A stretch of DNA of 61,912 nucleotides, counting the filler, from Collodictyon triciliatum (Eukaryota): the NCBI GenBank assembly GCA_043381765.1. It is 27 parts of 27 records of this genome, joined end to end, with 100 filler letters (N's around TTAATTAATTAA, not from the genome) between each part and the next. Parts side by side here need not be neighbours in the genome. Positions count along the whole stretch, not along the records: positions 1 to 2,202 come from JBHJMP010009294.1; 26 more parts are not named here. One strand, 5' to 3'. The notes under the pieces were generated by a model that worked only from the letters and a program-made list of their open reading frames with translations, searched no databases and was not told where the DNA came from. Shown piece by piece: positions 1-53,104 of this stretch. Numbering within the stretch: the stretch's first letter is position 1; each line of letters begins with the position of its first letter. The position numbers and the translations under genes were made by a program.

Positions 1-2202
1 TTAACTCTGATAAATCTTGAAAATAATCTGGTAATGTACCATCCATTTTGTTCCAGGACAGGTCCATATATTGGATTGAAGGAATGTTCCAATCTCTGCG
101 AAGAGTCCCGTTGATTTGATTTTCGCTTACGTCGAGTCTTGTCAGATTCATAAAATTAAACGAAGGTAAAGTACCGGTCAACCTGTTTCGAAATAGTTCT
201 AATTCTTGAATCTTGATACAATCCTTAAAATTTGGAACCATTCCCTCGATGTTGTTTTCAAATACAGAAAGAAATTCAATTTCTCTTAAATTTGGAAAGT
301 TTGGAATTGTTCCTATAACAAGAATAAGGTATGTAATTTTATAAAATTAATTCAATTAAATTGGAAAATGAAATACCGCTTAATTCGTTTCTATCTAGAT
401 AAATAAGTTCGACTACAGGAATTGATGTGAAATCTGGAATCGTTCCTGTAAAAATAAAATATTAGGGGTATTTCAATGAATTACGACAAACCAAAACACT
501 TCAATAAGAAAAATAATAGGAAAAATTGGATATAGTAGTGCTGGTCGATATTAACAAAGTTAATCTTTTTTTTTTTAAAAAAAACACTACCATTAATTTT
601 ATTATTTTGAAGATATATCTTTTTAATAATTGGAATACCACTGAAATTTGGAATAGTTCCTGTAATAATATATAAGAAATTAGAACGATATCAATATATT
701 TGAAAAAAAAATCAAAATCACCAGTCAGTCGGTTACTAAAGAGAGTAATTCTTTCGACATTTGGAATGTTTTTGAAGTTTGGAACCGTTCCTATTTTGAT
801 AAATTATTATGTAGTTTCTATTATGTCAAATAAAACAAAAATAAACCATTCAAATGATTGGTTTGAAGGTAGATTAGTCTGAGGTTAGAAATGTCACTGA
901 AGTCTGGGACCGTTCCTATATTATAAAATCAGTTGGATATCTATATCATGCAAGATTATTATAGAAATCACCATGAAGTCGATTATTATGAAGGTAAATT
1001 TCAATGGAGTTTGGAATCCTATCGAAGTTTGGTATTGTTCCTGTGATGTAAAAATAATCTTAGAAGATATAGTCTATTACAATTATATTTTAAAAGCTCA
1101 CCGTTCAACTGATTATTATCAAAAGATATCCATAAAGCATTTGGAATGTAGCTAAAATTCGGCAATGTTCCTATAACATCAAGTCAGTCTGCTAAAGGGA
1201 TGCGTTTATCATTTACAAAGAATATACCAGTAAGCTGATTGTCATAAATAGACAGCAGTTTAGTGTTTGGGATGCTACTGAAGTGTGGAATTGTTCCTGT
1301 AATGAAGACATTAGTATCTTTTTTTATATAAGAGGTTTTAAAATAATTGAATTACCAGTGAATAGATTTCCCCCAAGATATATTAATTCCGCGTTGGGGA
1401 TGTACCTAAAGTTTGGGACTGTCCCTAATATATATATAAATAAAAGAAATATTAAAATCAAAATATTTATGTGATTTAAGAAATACCATATATTTTGCAA
1501 TCATGAATCCCAAGGAGCCGAATATTGGGCAATCCAGAAAAATCTGGCAAAGTTCCTTTGTCAAGATAATAAGAATAAGAAAAATATTTGGAATCAATGA
1601 GGAGAAAGCATTGATTATAATTAAAATTATCCAAGATAGATAAACCTATAATTTTATCATTGGAACCAATCCATAAAGTTGTGAGTAAGTGAATCCTAGA
1701 AAAATCGGAAATTGTGCCTTCTAAATTATTGTCATCAATATCTAGATAGTCAATGCTCGGAATTGCTTGAAAATCTGGAATAGTCCCAGCAATTTGATTC
1801 ACATAAATATCCAATTTCAATATGCTTGGGAGGTTGAAATCTGGAAGATTTCCGTATATTAAATTATAACTCAAGTCCAAAGAGTTCAAAAATAGAAACT
1901 GTCCGAAAATCGCAGACGCCGCTTCAATATCTCCATAAAGAAAATTTTTTGGCATCTCGATTCTAACAACAGGACATGTATTGTTCTATTGATAAAATTT
2001 TGTAAATACCCACAAAGAAGCAATTTTTTTTTTAATTTTGGTACGTTCATGAATGATATTTTAAAAAAATGCTTACCATGTATTCCTCACCCAGACAGCG
2101 TTCATAGCAACCTATTCCATACCACTCACATATTGGAATGCTTTCATTCTTCCATCCACGATTGTCAGACCAATTATCTCCATCAAGCACATCATAGAGC
2201 CT
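1..2202 (-). CDS. Extracellular plant-type LRR protein (LRRNT cap + GxIP LRRs), partial at both ends, at least 12 exons
   Basis: Cap exon reads RLYDVLDGDNWSDNRGWKNESIPICEWYGIGC. Nine 69-nt exons (377-445, 591-659, 722-790, 847-915, 972-1040, 1102-1170, 1228-1296, 1356-1424, 1487-1555) each encode one 23-aa LRR, e.g. GTVPNFKNIPNVERITLFSNRLT, and are flanked by GT-AG phase-1 introns. Exons 1646-~1985 and 1-312 each carry several LRRs. Confidence 0.93.
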
Positions 2203-3638
2203 NNNNNNNNNNNNNNNNNNNNNNNNNNNNNNNNNNNNNNNNNNNNTTAATTAATTAANNNNNNNNNNNNNNNNNNNNNNNNNNNNNNNNNNNNNNNNNN
2301 NNTCTCACCCCCCTTCTCTCTTTTCTCTATTCCCCATCTCTATACTCCTCTGATGGCACATCCGCCATCACTATCCCCTTTTTACCTCGGAATACTTGCT
2401 TGGTGGTTGAAAAAAGATTGTTGGCACGGGTACCAACAGCGAAGTCCATCACGGATAAAAAAAAGATTCATCCAGGCTGAACCCAGTTAACATCGATTAG
2501 ATGAAGGATTAATGAGTATTCAAAAATATTGTTACAGTGGATTTTAAAACAGGATATTGATAAGTGTGCACCTTGAAGACAGTTTTAGCTGGAATGGGAG
2601 TGTTTGTGCGAACGAGAAGAATGAGCCTGTCGGTGATGAATATTGTCGTGTTTTCTTTTCTCGGGAAGCAATTCCGAGTCATATGAGTGAGTCTTTCATA
2701 ATTATAAAAATCCCTTCCTTATCGTTGCACTTTCGGGTTTCATCACATCTTGCAGTTTATTGTATATATTTGTGCAGTTTGTGAAGGAAAGTATTTTCAT
2801 TATTTTTTGTATAGGCATATGAAGCAGTCTTTTTTCTTTGAAGAATTTGCTCTATATCGCTTCCATTAACAGTGGTATGTCAGTCACTTATTATTGATCG
2901 AGAGTCTGCCTCCCGACGCAAGCTCGCCCCTCAGATGAGGTTGACGCGTTATAGTTCTGGTCTCATGCGATTTCATCATGAACTCAATTGAATATGTGGA
3001 GGTGTATTAATATGCAATAAAACAATATCCATAAACATTAAGCAATACGAAAGAAAAGCAAGCGAGAAAAGGAAAGAACTAAGTTTGGGCATTCCCATAT
3101 CATTTTTATAATAGGTTATAATACCGATTGAAAATATTCACAATTTGTGGCATGTCGAATACTGTGTCATAAATTTTCCGAATTTTTGCAGCAGGAATAC
3201 ACGTCGTGCATCATTGGGAGATATCGCACCTGGGGCATTCGAGAATGTTCTGTCTTCCCAATCACCGCACGAGTCACACACCGCACACGAGCGACACACA
3301 GCCCAATCCGTCCACTATATATTGAGATGGCCGCATGTTTATTCGGATGGAAGATTCGCCGGCCTTTGTGGGATATTTAACCTTCGTCCCGTCGAAATCA
3401 CGGCTGCCCTGCGCTCTTTCTTTCTCGCTACCTTATCACGTCGCTCATTCGCAATGCACATTCTATTCTCTGTGCGCACAACCGCACTGCTCTCACTCGA
3501 GCAACGCCAGTCTGTGTGACTTGTCAAGTCCAGTCACAAAACAAACTAACGCTAGGCAGCACACAAACACACAACCCAGTTCACTCATCCACACAGCCCC
3601 CCAGAACCCGTCCAAACTGCCTCCGCCTCACTTCTGTC

Positions 3639-3845
3639 ATGATGGCCGACGAGGCTTCGCTTTTAGAAGAGGTCCGACGAATCTCCAGGAAATCCCATCT
3701 TTAAAAAGCTCTGAGAGTCTAGACTTAGCCGGGAAAAGCCTGACATCCGTTCCGCGTGGTGTCTTTTTGTTAACTAGTCTGAAAATCTTGAGCCTTCATG
3801 GCAATCAGTTGCCATCGCTGCATCCACAAATATCGTGTTTGACAG
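3639..3845 (+). pseudogene. 5' exon of a cytosolic LRR protein with an apparent 1-nt frameshift near 3684
   Basis: ATG 3639 gives MMADEASLLEEVRRI; the LRR text (QEIPSLKSSESLDLAGKSLTSVPRGVFLLTSLKILSLHGNQLPSLHPQISCLT) continues in another frame. A GT donor follows at 3846. This may be a pseudogene or a base-call error. Confidence 0.5.
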
Positions 3846-3865
3846 GTATCATAAAACTTAGATGG

Positions 3866-4503
3866 ATTTTCCCTTCTATATCACTTTGTGCAGGGTGGTA
3901 GAGATGTTGGCTTTAGTTCTCTAGCCATCGTTTGCTTGAACGCTTTTTAGTGGCTAGGTGGCATAGAAGTAGTCGGTAATCAGGAATTGCATCCTGCGGT
4001 TTGGCCTGTAGCCCGGGTCTTGTGCTTGCATGAAAGAGGTACAGGGCGAGGTTGAATCTCTTTTTCACCTTCTTTCCACATGCCTCTTCTCACGGGGTCT
4101 GAGTAGTAGAGAACGTGCAGGTGGCAAAGGAAGCTGTTGAGGAAAGAGATTTGTATGATGTCGTTCAGCCTATTATCAGGAATGGGAGGCGGGTTGTTGA
4201 GTCTTGCTTCGCGTGAGTATATGCGCGCTGTCCACATAGTCCATAGCAAATGGCCTCGCGTCTCCGCCCAGAATGTTTTTTGCATCTGGACGCAGCTGTT
4301 GCAGATGCCCAAATATCGCCTGGATTGGGCCAACAGCCGCAGCCGTCTTGATTTTCGGTCGAAGAATCTCACTGGCTGTTTCGCGCTAGTTTTGAGCGAA
4401 GGGACATTGCACAAATGTGTGCTCAATGGATTCATCACGGTTGCTGCAAAGTGTGCATTGTTGGGAGACTTTGCCAGCTTTTGCCGCGCGTGTGCCTATC
4501 CAT
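3866..4503 (-). mobile_element. Degenerate 3' part of an L1/Tx1-like non-LTR retrotransposon (zf-RVT region + 3' end)
   Basis: The minus strand reads CTLCSNRDESIEHTFVQCPFAQN*, a C-x2-C-x8-H-x4-C knuckle with TAG where Trp is usual. After a frameshift it reads LLWTMWTAR. 3885-4140 is clearly homologous to 22270-22530. Confidence 0.8.
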
Positions 4504-5028
4504 NNNNNNNNNNNNNNNNNNNNNNNNNNNNNNNNNNNNNNNNNNNNTTAATTAATTAANNNNNNNNNNNNNNNNNNNNNNNNNNNNNNNNNNNNNNNNN
4601 NNNAGAGCAAACGCGAGTAGGAGAAGACACTACCGTGGAGAGGGTAGCACTGGAAAGAAGTCAGTGATAGCGAGTTGGTCAGGTGGGCGTCCCAACTGGT
4701 TGATTGGTTGCGTGAGCAGCAAGGGGTTGGATATGCTGTGGGAGATATCTTACGTGGTTTGGTTTGGTTTATTTTTCGTTACTTACATGCTGATTGTTTT
4801 AACATGACTCCATTCTTATATTTCTTCAACGCATATGCCATCAATTAATTTCACATTTGACATTTTAGATGTATATAAAATCGTATCGATGGCAATTAAA
4901 GAAATGTTTTGGTGAAGATGACTCATTTCTTGGGCCGAGTCCTCCAAGGAAATTATATTAAGAGGTACCTTATTGCAATTTTTATCAGATTTTTTTGGCC
5001 TTATAACCCCTCCTCTATGGAATTTATA

Positions 5029-6804
5029 TTAGTCAAGAATGTAAGTGACCCCTTTTGCAGGTCCTTTAGAGGATTCGAACGGAGCAGAGGCTAACATTGT
5101 GACATTGTTAACTGCAACATCAAATCCAAATCCATCAGAACCGTCCAAATGCTGACTTGTGTACTGTTTTTCTTCAAACCATTTACCTTCGTGAGCACTG
5201 AATATGTAAACTTTTCCTATTAAAACAAAGGTGACTCAGTTGCTTGCAATTATTTTTATTTTTATTTTTTTTTAAAAAAAAATTACTTTTTGATTTACAT
5301 ATAGTACTTCCGTTACATGGATATGTCCCTACTATTAGTTTTGTTCCATCAGAATCAAAACTATAGCCAAAGCCATCATTTTCGACACTTAATGGTCTAA
5401 CTGTGGATTTCATGGTCAAATGTCCGTGAGAATTAATGGCGTAAATACTGATAGAGCCTGAATTTAATTTAACAGCGTTATCATTCAGTGCAGAAATAAA
5501 AAGGTCACTGCCAACGAATTTTACTTTCCATCCAAACCCAACCTTTGTTTTATCTGTTATGGAATGACTGAGAACCCATTTATCTTTATTTCGGCGTAAA
5601 ATATTGACAGTTTCATGATTTTGATATGTTGGTCTATTTGCTATTGCAATTAGGTAGTCTGTAAAGAATGATAGAGCAGACCCGAAGAATTCATTTTCAA
5701 TTTTCATAGATGAATTGATTATGAAAGGTCGAGAGTTACATTTATCACCTTCAACCTGAAAAATGTAAACTATGCCTGAATTTTTAATAAGAGAAAAATT
5801 ATAGTTTGGAGAGCTTATTGCCAAATAATATCCTGATATACTTATTGTCTTGGAAAAGCTGTGGTCATTTCTATTTTTACCAGGTTTAATAGAGCATTTT
5901 TTTGTAAATACTTTTAAACTATCTTCCCAAATATACAAAACAACTGCTCCAGTTGATCCGCCTTGTCTTTTTGAGCCTGTTGCAGAAACAGCTAGTATGT
6001 TTCCACTCATTCCCATGTCAAATCCAAATCTCACATCTAAATTTAGGAAAGGATTTCTAATTTTACCTATAAAAATCAACTGGCCCTCTATCCTTTGATA
6101 TGCCAGAATGTATCCCCCATCACATAGATTAGGAGGTTTTACACAAAATGGAACAGATATCATAGCAAATCTGGTTGTAAGTATTACTCTATGTCCCATA
6201 TTTTCTGATTTTGTCGATTGAATTAGGTTTAAGTAATTACTGGTGGGGGTTAGAAGACTTGAGTTTGATAAATTACACACTGAAAATAACATATGGCATT
6301 TTTTAGAGTTGTATATGTACAAATCTTCAACAAAAGAATTTTCAATATTGGATTGAACGCATGATAAAATGCCGTACGAGCCGAATTCAGTTGTAAATGT
6401 TCCTTTTGGGCAATGAAAGCATGAGTTTTTATCTTTAGTTGCATCCGTCTCTTGATAGAATCCAGGTGAGCACTGAATGCATGATGAGCTTCTTTCGGCG
6501 CTGAAGCTTCCGTTTGAGCATTTGATGCAAGATAATATGCTTGATGAGTCTGTCATATTGTTGTAAGTACCGGCTGGACATGACACACACGAAGGCTGTC
6601 CATTCTTGTCATTGAAAGTCCCTTCTGGACAGCTTACGCACGACTCGCTTCCGTATGAGCCGGAGTTAAGATTGTATGTCCCCTTTGGACACGCGTAGCA
6701 TGAGTCTTGGTCTTTGGTAGCATTAACCTCTTGATAGAATCCAGGTGAGCACTCGATGCATGATGAGCTGCTCTCGGTGCTGAAGCTTCCGTTTGAGCAT
6801 TTGA
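5029..6804 (-). CDS. Cys-rich (ephrin-receptor-like/GCC2-GCC3-type) repeat protein with a C-terminal FG-GAP-like beta-propeller; 5' partial
   Basis: CPAGTYNN and CSPGFYQ repeats, with a 279-bp internal duplication (6450-6524 vs 6729-6804). These are followed by FG-GAP-like units FGFDMGMSGNILAVSA, FFGSALSF, GFGWKVKFVGSDLFISA and DGFGYSFDSDGTKLIVG. After an intron at ~5217-5286 the last exon ends DGFGFDVAV...VTYILD* at 5029. Confidence 0.85.
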
Positions 6805-7329
6805 NNNNNNNNNNNNNNNNNNNNNNNNNNNNNNNNNNNNNNNNNNNNTTAATTAATTAANNNNNNNNNNNNNNNNNNNNNNNNNNNNNNNNNNNNNNNN
6901 NNNNTTTCTTTTTTTCTTTTTTTTCTTTTTTTTTTCTTTCTTTTTTCTTTTTTTTTTCTTTCTTTTTTCTCTTTCCTTTTTCCTTTTTTTCTTTTTTTTC
7001 CTGGTGTAGGTGTAGATTTAACAAACCCAAAAACCACCCCTTCCCCCCTCAAGTAAGTACAAAAAAGGAAATAGAAAATTATGTACAAGTTTGTAATCTA
7101 TATATGGACGCTGTCACGGTATCTTTCTATAATTTTCTAATCTGGAATATTGATTTTCTGACTATTCTTTGACTCTGCTGCTATTTGTATTTTTTTTCTA
7201 ACCACAATCCCTTTCAGCGTTCTGATGTTTTGCTGTGAAAGCTGTCCTTCACTCAACCATCCTTCATCCACTGTCCTTCTCATCCTTTTCTTTTTGTCCT
7301 GAAGGACTCTCAACACTAGCTGCCGATCA

Positions 7330-16266: not shown

Positions 16267-16372
16267 GGTGCCAATCCGGACGAACTCGCACAACTGAAGC
16301 ACAAATTCCCGCGGGTTGGGCAAGCTGTTGGGGCCGACCGCAAGAAAGCAATACTTGCCTTCATTCAGAATC

Positions 16373-16419
<47 letters not shown>

Positions 16420-17319
16420 GAACAACAACAACAACAACAGCAACAGCAACAACAACAGCAACAGCAACAGCGGAACATAGAACTATGCGGGATACGAAAA
16501 CTAGAGGGAAAGAGATGGGTTATCCTAGATGACGGGTTTCAACACCATCGTATCGGACGATTATTGGATATTGTTATGATAAATTGCTGGGAGCCTTTTG
16601 GAATTGGTGGGGATATTCGTGAATCGCAGAAAAAGTATGGACATGTCATTCCCAAAGGAAACCTGCGAGAACCCATCACCGCCTTGTCTGATGCTGATGT
16701 GATTGCCCTACATCACTCAAACCATGTTTCAGCTGCAGAGCTGTCGCTTATAAAGCAAATGATTACAGAGGCGATTGGTCCCCACAATAAAGCAAGACAG
16801 CCTTTGATTCTAGAATCCTTTTTCAAGTGGACGCATTTCACGGTTTACGATTTTGGGATGGCCCAGTTTTCAAGCAAAGACGACGTCAACCAGACCAAAG
16901 CTCATCTTACTAGGCACGAGCTGTGCGGCACGATAGTAAAAGAGCTGGAGAAGATTAAAGAGTACTCTCGAGTATATGTCATTTGTGGATTGGGAGACCT
17001 GCGCGCGTATCATAGGCAATGGTCTGATTTGCATCCTTGTATTGAATGGCACACACTCGGCGACCATCAGAGTTTGTCTCCGGCCCAATGCAGCCTCTTG
17101 GTGGAGCGATTGACGCACGAATCAAAGTGTGTTGGAGAGGCACATAAGCTCACGGCTATAGGAGTATCCGAAAAGGACTTTTTCAGACAGAGGAGCGATT
17201 ACATCGCTATTGCCGAAAGGACAGGGGTTCCTGTTTGGGTTGTCTCTGGTGAATTGAACATCTCGTCAGGAGAGTCTGATTTCCGGGCGCTGCTGCAGAA
17301 GAAGATAGGCGATACCTGA
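16267..17319 (+). CDS. lpxK: Tetraacyldisaccharide 4'-kinase (lipid A biosynthesis), last exon, with a poly-Q insert; 5' partial
   Basis: One frame runs from an AG acceptor at 16265-16266: GANPDELAQL..VGADRKKA..(Q)n..WVILDDGFQHHRIGRLLDIVMIN..IPKGNLREP..LSDADVI..SEKDFFR. This matches the LpxK motifs DDGxQH, PxGxLREP and TEKD. Confidence 0.9.
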
Positions 17320-51917: not shown

Positions 51918-53104
51918 TAAGAGTGGCTGATTATATATTTATTTGAAGAGTAATTATAATATGTGCTGAGATATTATAAACCAAAAGCAACATTACCCAT
52001 AATCCCATGAGAGAGAGAAAAAAAAGCGCACACATTAATTTATTTTGCCTGCAAAAAGAAAAAAAAAGGAGGGTCTATGCTACATTACTGGCGGCTATTC
52101 TTTTCGCCCTCTTTGATTTACTATAACAANNNNNNNNNNNNNNNNNNNNNNNNNNNNNNNNNNNNNNNNNNNNNNNNNNNNNNNNNNNNNNNNNNNNNNN
52201 NNNNNNNNNNNNNNNNNNNNNNNNNNNNNNNNNNNNNNNNNNNNNNNNNNNNNNNNNNNNNNNNNNNNNNNNNNNNNNNNNNNNNNNNNNNNNNNNNNNN
52301 NNNNNNNNNNNNNNNNNNNNNGTAGATGAACTCGCTTCTCCAAAGCCTGCGTGTGATTCCTTCAAGAGCCCGATTTATTGCCGGTGCCTCTTTTCTGCGT
52401 CCCATCTCCACTGTCGCAGTCTCCCTCCAGCGTCCACCGCCGCATTACCAACAGAACATTTCGTCGACGTCTGTATTCTCCTGACACACTTTTGCTCAGA
52501 CTTTGTGATTCTCTTCTTCCTTCGCATAAGTCCTCTGAAGCAAGGGAATACTGAAAATGATGTGCTTTGCACAGAGTTTAGTTACCGTTGTATTCCCAAC
52601 CATGCAAATTATCAAACATAGTTTCAATAAGCATCAGAGTAGTGGAAACCAAAAAAACCAAAAAAACCAAAAAAACCAAAAAAACCAAAAAAACCAAAAA
52701 AACCAAAAAAACCAAAAAAACCAAAAAAACCAAAAAAANNNNNNNNNNNNNNNNNNNNNNNNNNNNNNNNNNNNNNNNNNNNTTAATTAATTAANNNNNN
52801 NNNNNNNNNNNNNNNNNNNNNNNNNNNNNNNNNNNNNNAGAAAAAAGAAAAAAGAAAAAAGAAAAAAAGAAAAAAGAAAAAAAGAAAAAAGAAAAAAAGA
52901 AAAAAAGAAAAAAAGAAAAAAAGAAAAAAAGAAAAAAGAAAAAAAGAAAAAAGAAAAAAAGAAAAAAAGAAAAAAGAAAATGAAGATGGGGAGGGGAAGT
53001 AAAAGTTTCATGTTTATCTATCATATACACCAACATTATGAAAATTTATTAATGCTCTTACATGTTTGGCAATCCTGAGTTTATCTCCAAATTAAAATAT
53101 ACAG

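Follow-up and report, generated by a model that had tools for sequence, protein, structure and literature searches.

A row of nine 69-nt, one-repeat LRR exons in Collodictyon triciliatum: probably an old, stably spliced duplication product

Does a row of equal-length exons, each coding for a single LRR and each removable without a frameshift, serve a protist as a device for diversifying a recognition receptor, or is it a trace of how the gene was built? The question is raised by a locus of Collodictyon triciliatum (GCA_043381765.1, record JBHJMP010009294.1), for which an earlier note proposed an extracellular receptor system diversified by alternative splicing or exon shuffling. The window, i.e., the whole 61,912-nucleotide stretch of DNA analysed, strings together some 27 contigs, each roughly 2.2 kb long, with N44-TTAATTAATTAA-N44 linkers between them, and the genuine context of the array is limited to positions 1-2202. 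The array region (377-1555) and the LRR gene to which it belongs lie on the minus strand, which the note did not state, and both ends of the gene are cut off by the 2.2-kb contig. The answer that we favour, with a probability of about two in three, is that the region is the middle of an intron-rich gene coding for the ectodomain of a protist LRR protein, and that its one-repeat-per-exon layout is an old, stably spliced duplication product and not an active generator of receptor diversity.

The exon-intron anatomy and the LRR identity of the array are read directly from the DNA. When the minus strand of positions 1-2210 was scanned for the pattern, nine candidates of exactly 69 nt came out, all of them with AG directly before and GT directly after. 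The first two bases, GA or GG, are positions 2 and 3 of a Gly codon, and the closing G is position 1 of the Gly codon that follows; the layout is symmetric and phase 1, and removal of any subset of the exons keeps the frame. The nine units read GT[L/V/I]P..., are stop-free and comprise 23 residues, that is, one LRR; GxIP is present in 9/9 units, the repeat period is 23 residues, and all nine peptides fit the LRR repeat. In the order of the gene, exon 1 (GTLPDFSGLPNIRLLGIHDCKIY) is located at 1487-1555, exon 2 at 1356-1424 after a 62-nt intron (1486-1425), exon 3 at 1228-1296 after a 59-nt intron (1355-1297), exon 4 at 1102-1170 after a 57-nt intron with an in-frame TGA (1227-1171), exon 5 at 972-1040 after a 61-nt intron (1101-1041), exon 6 at 847-915 and exon 7 at 722-790, each after a 56-nt intron (971-916 and 846-791, respectively), exon 8, with a G+C content of 0.20, at 591-659 after a 62-nt intron (721-660), and exon 9 at 377-445, between the longest intron (145 nt, 590-446) and one of 64 nt (376-313). 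The strings ERITLFS, KKIYLQN, and RLIYLQT belong to exons 7, 8, and 6, respectively. The G+C content is 0.20-0.43 in the exons vs 0.11-0.33 in the introns. As a chance control the same scan was run on both strands of the whole 61.9-kb window, requiring a length divisible by 3, no stop, and a start matching G.[ILVM][PS]; it gave 18 matches, ten in the array gene, seven in a second LRR gene (39209-40324), and one elsewhere. The description of nine symmetric phase-1 exons with a split Gly codon, from which the question started, is thereby confirmed.

All 11 introns of the gene are of the GT..AG type, and eight of the ten bounding the nine exons are 56-64 nt long. Upstream of the array lies a partial 5' exon (2077-2202, minus strand, as are all features of this gene), beginning at the contig end, whose translation gives an LRRNT-like Cys cap (..W..N.SIPICEWYGIGC..RC..); its match to LRRNT_2 is weak (E 0.014, 16.1 bits, under the 20.7 cutoff), and in P0005, a transcript product of Diphylleia rotans, the segment aligned with it is the cap. 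It is followed by a 91-nt GT..AG intron (1986-2076, G+C 0.22), of phase 0 if the frame of the upstream exon is right, and by a large exon (1646-1985) comprising the end of the cap (..NNTCPVVRIE..) and several unsplit LRRs, including units of 22, 23, and 24 residues, with an LRR_4 match of 27 bits, equal to the Pfam cutoff; this exon ends in phase 1 on G. The next intron (1556-1645, 90 nt, GT..AG) is stop-free and a multiple of 3, and its retention would add 30 residues. Its reading as coding sequence was rejected on account of a 31-column gap to P0005 exactly at this place and of its G+C content of 0.23, and because the same two features mark 1645-1556 as an intron, 1555-1487 is a separate exon. 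On the other side, the last exon on the contig (1-312) starts in phase 1 with the GA of GTIP, carries at least four more intron-less LRRs (23, 23, 22, and 23 residues; Pfam LRR_1, E 5.4e-11, and LRR_8, E 5.1e-7), and runs off the contig end. The introns of the array gene do not resemble one another, the best local score of 30 being equal to the shuffled-control maximum (mean 18.6 vs 17.4), and in the absence of mutual similarity an introner-like origin of the introns was ruled out. A search of the same introns for LRR relics found none, and Rfam and tRNA scans of the window gave 0 matches each.

The nearest relatives of both LRR genes of the window are D. rotans transcripts (EukProt), and the homology of the array gene to this family is directly visible. 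The spliced exons of 1-2202 code for a 466-residue product aligning to residues 121-577 of P0005 with 34% identity over 458 residues (E 2e-90) and a single gap of 1 residue; the cap exon 1985-1646 (113 residues) is 46% identical to its D. rotans relative. P0005, on reading its sequence, comprises an N-terminal hydrophobic leader, Cys-capped LRRs, a Cys-rich region, and several C-terminal hydrophobic helices, in this order. A search among 1.84 billion representatives gave 23598 matches at E up to 0.001, repeated matching being usual for every long LRR protein; inspection was confined to those whose best-matching part started at the cap, and of the five fetched, four (P0191, P0196, P0208, and P0276) share with P0005 the cap, the 23-residue LRRs, the Cys-rich part, and the C-terminal hydrophobic region. 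The window gene carries the elements defining the family, namely, the cap C.W.G..C ... CPV..I and the 23-residue repeat GT[ILV]P[DN]F found in P0005, P0132/P0136, and the representatives. Full-length relatives combine a leader peptide with a Cys-capped array of some 26-36 LRRs, 23 residues each, which is followed by a Cys-rich stalk and, at the C terminus, by a multi-pass membrane domain. By homology to them, the array protein is probably extracellular and membrane-anchored, and may bind a ligand; this supports the receptor-like part of the earlier proposal, the leader, stalk, and membrane part of the gene itself lying off the contig. Searches of the window by tblastn with the spliced product and P0005 matched only the cap exon of the second LRR gene, and with P0005 no Cys-rich or membrane part was found on any window contig. 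The protist origin of the locus has indirect backing, as D. rotans transcripts are closest to both genes and near-identical DNA is present in freshwater metagenome runs.

The relationship to D. rotans does not extend to single repeats. The unit lengths are 22, 23, 24, 23 x11, 22, and 23 residues in the window gene and 22, 23, 23, 23 x11, 22, and 23 in P0005, so the two share an irregular pattern of 22-residue units, which speaks for a stable array; the matching place of the second such unit is a single coincidence. The collinear unit-by-unit score of 312 is attained in 8793 of 20000 permutations, whose mean is 307.6; since pairing is no better than permuted, the gap-free alignment mostly reflects the equal period. 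One-to-one conservation of exons was dropped after this result; the D. rotans products are no more than 34-39% identical, with no correspondence repeat by repeat. At the exposed positions identity to the D. rotans units is 7% for diagonal and off-diagonal pairs alike, and the concave face is not conserved at this distance. Fast evolution would equally give a non-conserved concave face, and we have counted this observation against an old, stable array.

The age of the copies can be observed directly. The nine exon-encoded units are 46% identical to one another vs 33% to the intron-less flanking units, and the corresponding D. rotans units are 27% identical among themselves; the greater likeness of the nine places duplication or homogenisation in the array lineage, after its split from the D. 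rotans gene. Pairwise nucleotide identity of the nine exons ranges from 0.38 to 0.67, with no pair above 67%, and the overall pS of 0.71 rises to at least 0.75 at exposed as well as at 'other' positions. As a consequence of this saturation dN/dS among the nine exons is undefined and pS is usable only as a sign of copy age. An excess of non-synonymous change at the xxLxLxx positions, which the earlier note had suggested looking for, was not measurable (pN 0.57 vs pS 0.77, saturated), nor were any young or recently copied exons found, identity being 38-67% and the introns standing at the shuffled level.

Origin of the array by exon duplication is supported by these comparisons. Most likely, a single exon-plus-intron unit would have been duplicated in tandem to give the nine-exon array, by which equal exon length and equal phase arise automatically. 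The duplication would have taken place long ago, the synonymous sites and introns having since lost their similarity. Most probably the introns, which are short (56-145 nt) and AT-rich, are spliced out constitutively across the array, and the product would form a continuous LRR solenoid, with one turn per exon and the xxLxLxx residues on a concave ligand-binding face.

The SERK genes of plants and the glycoprotein-hormone/LGR receptors of vertebrates also have one LRR per exon. LRR exon arrays of one length and one phase have already been described in brown algae, Tetrahymena, and human NLRs. According to two papers on the type I ROCO genes of the brown algae Ectocarpus and Saccharina (PMC3341825, PMC11378527), each exon codes for one LRR, starts at the G of GxxP, and has a split codon on either side, opening with two bases and closing with one; in the 2024 paper nucleotides 3-71 encode 23 residues. 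The window exons are alike in having one LRR per exon, the same boundary and split codons, and a tandem arrangement of uniform length, but they are 69 nt long (9/9) and the brown-algal ones 72 nt. These papers report recent shuffling, intron relics, positive selection, and splice variants. Recent shuffling of this kind was not detected in the array gene: maximum exon identity is 0.67, its introns are relic-free, and its units group by gene. The proteins differ as well, the brown-algal ones being LRR-ROC-COR GTPases and the homologues of the window gene having a leader, a Cys cap, a Cys-rich stalk, and membrane helices; no ROC-COR GTPase was found on the contig, and full-length P0005 matches LRR families and no other domain in Pfam.

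Tetrahymena is, like the presumed source of the window gene, a freshwater protist whose tandem LRR exons are of one length and one phase. In its LRR genes (PMC6564038) the arrayed exons are exactly 90 bp long, the introns are of phase 2, and the repeat has 30 residues, vs 69 nt, phase 1, and 23-residue plant-type repeats in the window; the copies number tens of thousands and are associated with a retrotransposon, and older 'group II' arrays keep the exon pattern without similarity of the repeats at the nucleotide level. In human NLRP3 (PMC6642158) frame-preserving 171-bp exons code for two LRRs each, and skipping of exon 5 is documented. The human NLR exons, as given there, resemble those of the window in their single length and in a boundary at the same repeat position, but the proteins are RI-type and cytosolic with two LRRs per exon instead of one. 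Plant-type extracellular LRR RLPs share with the window gene GxIP after LxxLxLxxNxL, an N-terminal Cys cap, and long arrays; their matches, including EIX2, Cf-9, PSKR, and ERECTA, reach at most 133 bits vs 219 for D. rotans, their repeat has 24 residues vs 23, the LRRNT_2 score of the window gene falls below the cutoff (16.1 vs 20.7 bits), and no kinase or single-pass anchor was seen in its relatives. Equal-length, same-phase arrays are raw material for exon shuffling or skipping in brown algae, Tetrahymena, and human NLRs. The present locus joins these examples; it belongs to an uncharacterised family of protist proteins (LRR / Cys-rich / multi-pass membrane), shares its exon boundary with brown algae, and raises the modest question of whether this boundary is ancient in GxxP-type LRR genes or convergent. 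It represents the architecture without the dynamics and is a comparison point rather than evidence for a new diversity-generating system.

Among the other explanations, ongoing shuffling at the DNA level, in which unequal crossing-over or exchange among loci alters exon number and order as in the Ectocarpus ROCO and Tetrahymena group III LRR genes, is unlikely, roughly to the same degree as the insertion of introns considered below. It would account for the nine units being closer to each other than to the flanks and to D. rotans units, and for array lengths within the family differing by up to about 10 repeats; moreover, a 58%-identical fragment, P0131, indicates that further paralogue-like copies exist. 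It would also fit the second LRR gene of the window (39209-40324), which has introns at the same codon position as the array gene, 66-nt units, and, in an intron, a 71-nt frame-shifted LRR exon-like piece (39366-39436) resembling the non-coding LRR relics reported for Ectocarpus introns; this piece may be a dead exon or a homopolymer error of the assembly. Against it stand the exon pairs of at most 67% nucleotide identity with saturated pS, and introns at the shuffled-control level, whereas young Tetrahymena arrays keep nucleotide repeats and uniform intron lengths. The two loci compared also differ in their exon length classes (66/63 nt in the second gene vs 69 nt), and for 15 of 16 units the nearest neighbour belongs to the same gene, so mixing of exons between loci is not seen for them. 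The second gene codes, in addition, for a NIDO domain, also found in D. rotans P0132.

Shuffling is further opposed by environmental DNA. Six near-identical contigs of 151-250 nt, from four freshwater metagenome runs of four studies, keep the local exon order; they have a depth of 2-4, cover only three whole 69-nt exons, and comprise 336 intronic and 674 exonic positions. Eight differences were counted, of which the six that could be placed are all intronic, two being unplaced. Within this environmental material, contigs from two other studies keep the exon orders 4-5-6 and 2-3, and their placed differences are intronic. Taken together, none of the tests carried out gave support to an actively diversifying system.

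The insertion of introns, by which an array at first intron-less would have received them independently at the same site of at least nine repeats, is about equally doubtful. No intron interrupts the equivalent Gly in the LRRs of 1985-1646 and 312-1, the intron sequences are unrelated, and among metagenome relatives (96 stretches matched, two confirmed) L001 and L002 are comparable intron-less arrays of 23-residue repeats, each within one open frame (454 and 473 codons, respectively). However, these two are little informative for the array lineage because they are distant (27-31% identity) and GC-rich (0.52-0.54). The intron-flanked units are also more homogeneous (0.46 vs 0.33), which is what joint copying of exon and intron would produce, and the introns of the second gene occupy the same codon position in another length class. 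None of the nine exon 3' ends carries the proto-splice AG of the consensus, the final G being preceded by TG or CG.

Combinatorial skipping of the nine symmetric exons, giving from one gene ectodomains that vary in the number and combination of LRRs, is less probable than either. All exons are removable in frame, and skipping has precedents in the brown-algal ROCO LRR exons, which have the same boundary and reportedly up to nine splice variants, and in the single 171-bp LRR exon skipped by human NLRP3. The per-position entropy, moreover, is 1.7-2.5 bits at the exposed positions 13, 14, 16, 18, and 19 of the unit vs 0-0.8 bits at G1, T2, P4, F6, I9, P10, I15, and N20; such variation, however, is common to every LRR protein and no sign of diversification. 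The symmetric phase, likewise, follows automatically from duplication of an exon-intron unit. In genomes with introns of about 60 nt splicing proceeds mainly by intron definition and exon skipping is rare, and the 56-64-nt length of 8/10 bounding introns favours this mode here. Deletion of a whole LRR (23 residues) was found in none of nine D. rotans isoform ORFs (seven of P0005 and two of P0132/P0136). One D. rotans isoform, P0125, lacks 12 residues from exactly the G of GPIP, which could be counted in favour of skipping. The least probable variant, by a small step, is an extracellular counterpart of the brown-algal cassette, in which a surface family of a freshwater protist would vary its LRR solenoid by in-frame skipping or unequal exchange of single-LRR exons, and which would add the coupling of an LRR ectodomain with the ancient exon boundary of the Ectocarpus ROCO genes to a multi-pass, possibly channel-like membrane domain.

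Several observations concern the D. rotans family itself. The gap of P0125 begins at the point at which use of an alternative acceptor within such an exon would be expected. A literature search for the D. rotans-type LRR / Cys-rich / membrane family found no paper. The distance from the cap to the C-side motif is 597, 661, 762, and 823 residues in those four of six family proteins in which the motif pattern matched, so that array length differs among members. Finally, for the last 481 residues of P0005 the nearest atlas clusters have scores of 0.92-0.93, and the share of their members with Ephrin_rec_like, TRP, or DUF7630 ranges from a minority to a majority, which serves as no more than a lead.

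The linkers N44-TTAATTAATTAA-N44 recur about every 2.3 kb across the window (e.g., at 2203-2302 and 4504-4603), showing that it is a chain of contigs rather than one locus; the chain consists of some 27 contigs, each roughly 2.2 kb long, and a single run of 192 Ns at 52130-52321. Hence only positions 1-2202 are the genuine context of the nine-exon array, and features on separate pieces are not genomic neighbours. This contig carries one gene, on the minus strand, with both ends cut off by the contig.

The array was defined by a minus-strand pattern scan and an explicit exon/intron table, which confirmed nine symmetric phase-1 exons of exactly 69 nt with one LRR each, as claimed in the earlier note. 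Exons 1 to 9 lie on the minus strand at 1555-1487, 1424-1356, 1296-1228, 1170-1102, 1040-972, 915-847, 790-722, 659-591, and 445-377. Every one of them is preceded by AG and followed by GT, is opened by bases 2 and 3 of a Gly codon and closed by base 1 of the next, and codes for a stop-free unit of 23 residues, GT[L/V/I]P[N/D/H]F..[I/L][P/S]....[I/L].[L/I/F]..[N/C].[L/I/F]. The introns on the contig are all GT..AG (11 of 11), 56-145 nt long, with a G+C content of 0.11-0.33 versus 0.20-0.43 in the nine exons. The same scan of both strands of the whole window gave 18 matches, ten in this gene, seven in a second LRR gene, and one elsewhere. The exon pattern is not due to chance. In the flanking exons, 1985-1646 and 312-1, the LRRs are unbroken by introns, thus the one-LRR-per-exon layout is limited to the central block.

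In Pfam, the flanking exons match LRR families, and the first exon of the gene fragment matches LRRNT_2 below the threshold. Among database relatives, exon 1985-1646 comes closest to P0005, a Diphylleia rotans transcript product of 1360 residues (EukProt; 219 bits), followed at much lower scores by bacterial and plant LRR proteins. The script-joined exons code for 466 residues, 34% identical to residues 121-577 of P0005 with a single 1-residue gap. The 90 nt upstream of the first 69-nt exon (1645-1556) are in frame and without a stop, and their retention would add 30 residues; P0005, the best homologue, shows a 31-column gap exactly over this segment, which is therefore an intron. By eye, P0005 comprises a hydrophobic N-terminal leader, a Cys cap shared with the studied gene, approximately 28 LRRs with 23 residues each, a part rich in Cys, and several hydrophobic stretches towards the C-terminus; Pfam finds only LRRs in it. 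When its C-terminal part was looked up in an atlas, the result pointed, as a lead only, to Ephrin_rec_like/TRP-like membrane proteins. A HMMER search of 1.84 billion representatives revealed four further proteins built in this way (P0191, P0196, P0208, and P0276). The distance from the cap to a conserved C-side motif, whose pattern was matched in four of six family members, is 597, 661, 762, and 823 residues, so the array length has changed within the family. This homology supports one part of the earlier proposal of a diversifying recognition receptor, namely that the gene codes for an extracellular, receptor-like protist protein, whose own leader and anchor would lie off the contig. No paper came up in a literature search that combined Diphylleia with leucine-rich repeats. 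P0131, a 107-residue fragment from a 738-nt contig, is 58% identical to exon 1985-1646, and, as it stops where that exon stops, it is probably a paralogue or a close relative that shares this exon boundary.

The second LRR gene is located at 39209-41267, also on the minus strand. Its large first exon codes for a NIDO domain (E 4.6e-31), together with a Cys cap resembling that of the studied gene; past the cap there are seven exons (66 or 63 nt) that carry one LRR each, with phase-1 introns of 58-235 nt at the same Gly position. Here, too, the top relative is the product of a D. rotans transcript (P0132/P0136). Within the 235-nt intron lies a 71-nt AG|..|GT piece resembling an LRR exon (39366-39436, minus strand), with the LRR unit readable at both ends, the frame changing across T/A homopolymer runs, and a stop thereafter; the piece is either a dead exon or the product of an assembly error in a homopolymer. 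At the end of this contig (39075-39170), a CT-rich unit of 10 bases forms a long tandem repeat.

The best-supported account of the nine-exon array is duplication, divergence, and joint splicing, and the exon-duplication origin is, along with the extracellular protist LRR protein, a part of the earlier reading that holds. Long ago, an exon-plus-intron unit bearing one 23-residue LRR would have been duplicated in tandem, which yields equal length and symmetric phase automatically; the copies would since have diverged to saturation, and today the exons would be spliced into one solenoid with the variable, exposed xxLxLxx residues on its concave face. The alternative, repeated intron gain, is disfavoured on three grounds. 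The proto-splice consensus has AG at the exon end preceding the intron, and none of the nine exons ends so; the second gene has its introns at the same position; and the nine units are 46% identical to one another, versus 33% to the flanking units and 27% among the D. rotans units. This greater likeness also suggests that the exon unit was duplicated or homogenised within this lineage. No one-to-one match of the nine units with D. rotans units was found: the collinear score of 312 compares with a permutation mean of 307.6 and was reached by 8793 of 20000 permutations, and identity at exposed sites is 7% both on and off the diagonal. The gap-free alignment with P0005 thus mostly mirrors the period that both arrays have in common; position by position, they agree only in the pattern of irregular units of 22 residues. 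Two distant metagenomic relatives (L001 and L002; 27-31% identity, G+C content 0.52-0.54) carry comparable intron-less arrays, at 2705-4066 and 1876-3294, respectively, in which two nearly identical types of 23-residue LRRs, GPIPSLDQVPKL.. and GTIPSLHNV.EL.., alternate. They point to a very recent tandem expansion, so arrays of this type of LRR can expand without introns too.

Active diversification, the other part of the proposal, is not borne out, although the lack of unit-by-unit correspondence with D. rotans, the greater likeness of the nine units, the exon-like piece in the second gene, and the expanded intron-less arrays of L001 and L002 speak in the opposite direction. Pairwise identity among the nine exons is 0.38-0.67, and the Nei-Gojobori method gave an overall pS of 0.71; at the xxLxLxx positions pS is 0.77 and pN 0.57, so that, with synonymous sites saturated, the anticipated excess of replacement changes is not demonstrable there. 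Similarity among the introns does not exceed that of shuffled controls (top local score 30, equal to the shuffle maximum; mean 18.6 vs 17.4), and no LRR relics were found in the introns of this gene. For 15 of the 16 exon units of the two genes the nearest neighbour comes from the same gene, and the length classes are gene-specific as well. Exon order is locally preserved (exons 4-5-6 and 2-3) in six contigs (151-250 nt) that come from four freshwater metagenome runs, belonging to four studies, and match the gene at 98-100% and cover 674 exonic and 336 intronic positions at a depth of only 2-4. The listed differences, five substitutions and one deletion, are all intronic; two more were counted but not placed. 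Introns this short are suggestive of intron definition, a mode of splicing in which exons are seldom skipped. Among the nine D. rotans isoform ORFs (seven from the P0005 cluster and two from that of P0132), the differences are point changes, altered C-terminal frames, and a single deletion of 12 residues, and none of the ORFs lacks a whole 23-residue unit. The deletion, in the D. rotans isoform P0125 (columns 549-560 of alignment A1), begins exactly at the G of GPIP; since an alternative acceptor in a Gly-starting exon would produce it, it hints that D. rotans has an intron at this Gly as well.

According to published descriptions, each LRR of brown-algal ROCO genes is encoded by its own exon of 72 nt, which begins at the G of GxxP, and these LRR exons undergo shuffling, are under positive selection, and give splice variants (PMC3341825, PMC11378527). 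Tetrahymena has tens of thousands of LRR exons of exactly 90 bp with phase-2 introns on either side, and also older LRR arrays without repeat similarity at the nucleotide level (PMC6564038), while human NLR genes have frame-preserving LRR exons of 171 bp, with skipping of one such exon in NLRP3 (PMC6642158). The studied locus shares its architecture with all three systems and its exact exon boundary with brown-algal ROCO genes, but differs in the 69-nt length and in showing no sign of recent dynamics. Its protein context also appears to be different, with a capped ectodomain that belongs to a family of membrane proteins and no ROC-COR.

Among the other contigs, the one at 32186-34385 has a G+C content of about 0.61, versus 0.27-0.40 elsewhere; its open frame of 626 codons matches MatE (E 1.4e-55), and the contig may stem from another source, such as a bacterium. 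Long open frames are present on separate contigs at 5183-6856 (minus strand), 16267-17319, and 34434-35924 (both plus strand), one of the three matching Ephrin_rec_like, FG-GAP_2, and NCD3G, one being LpxK-like, and one a protein kinase.
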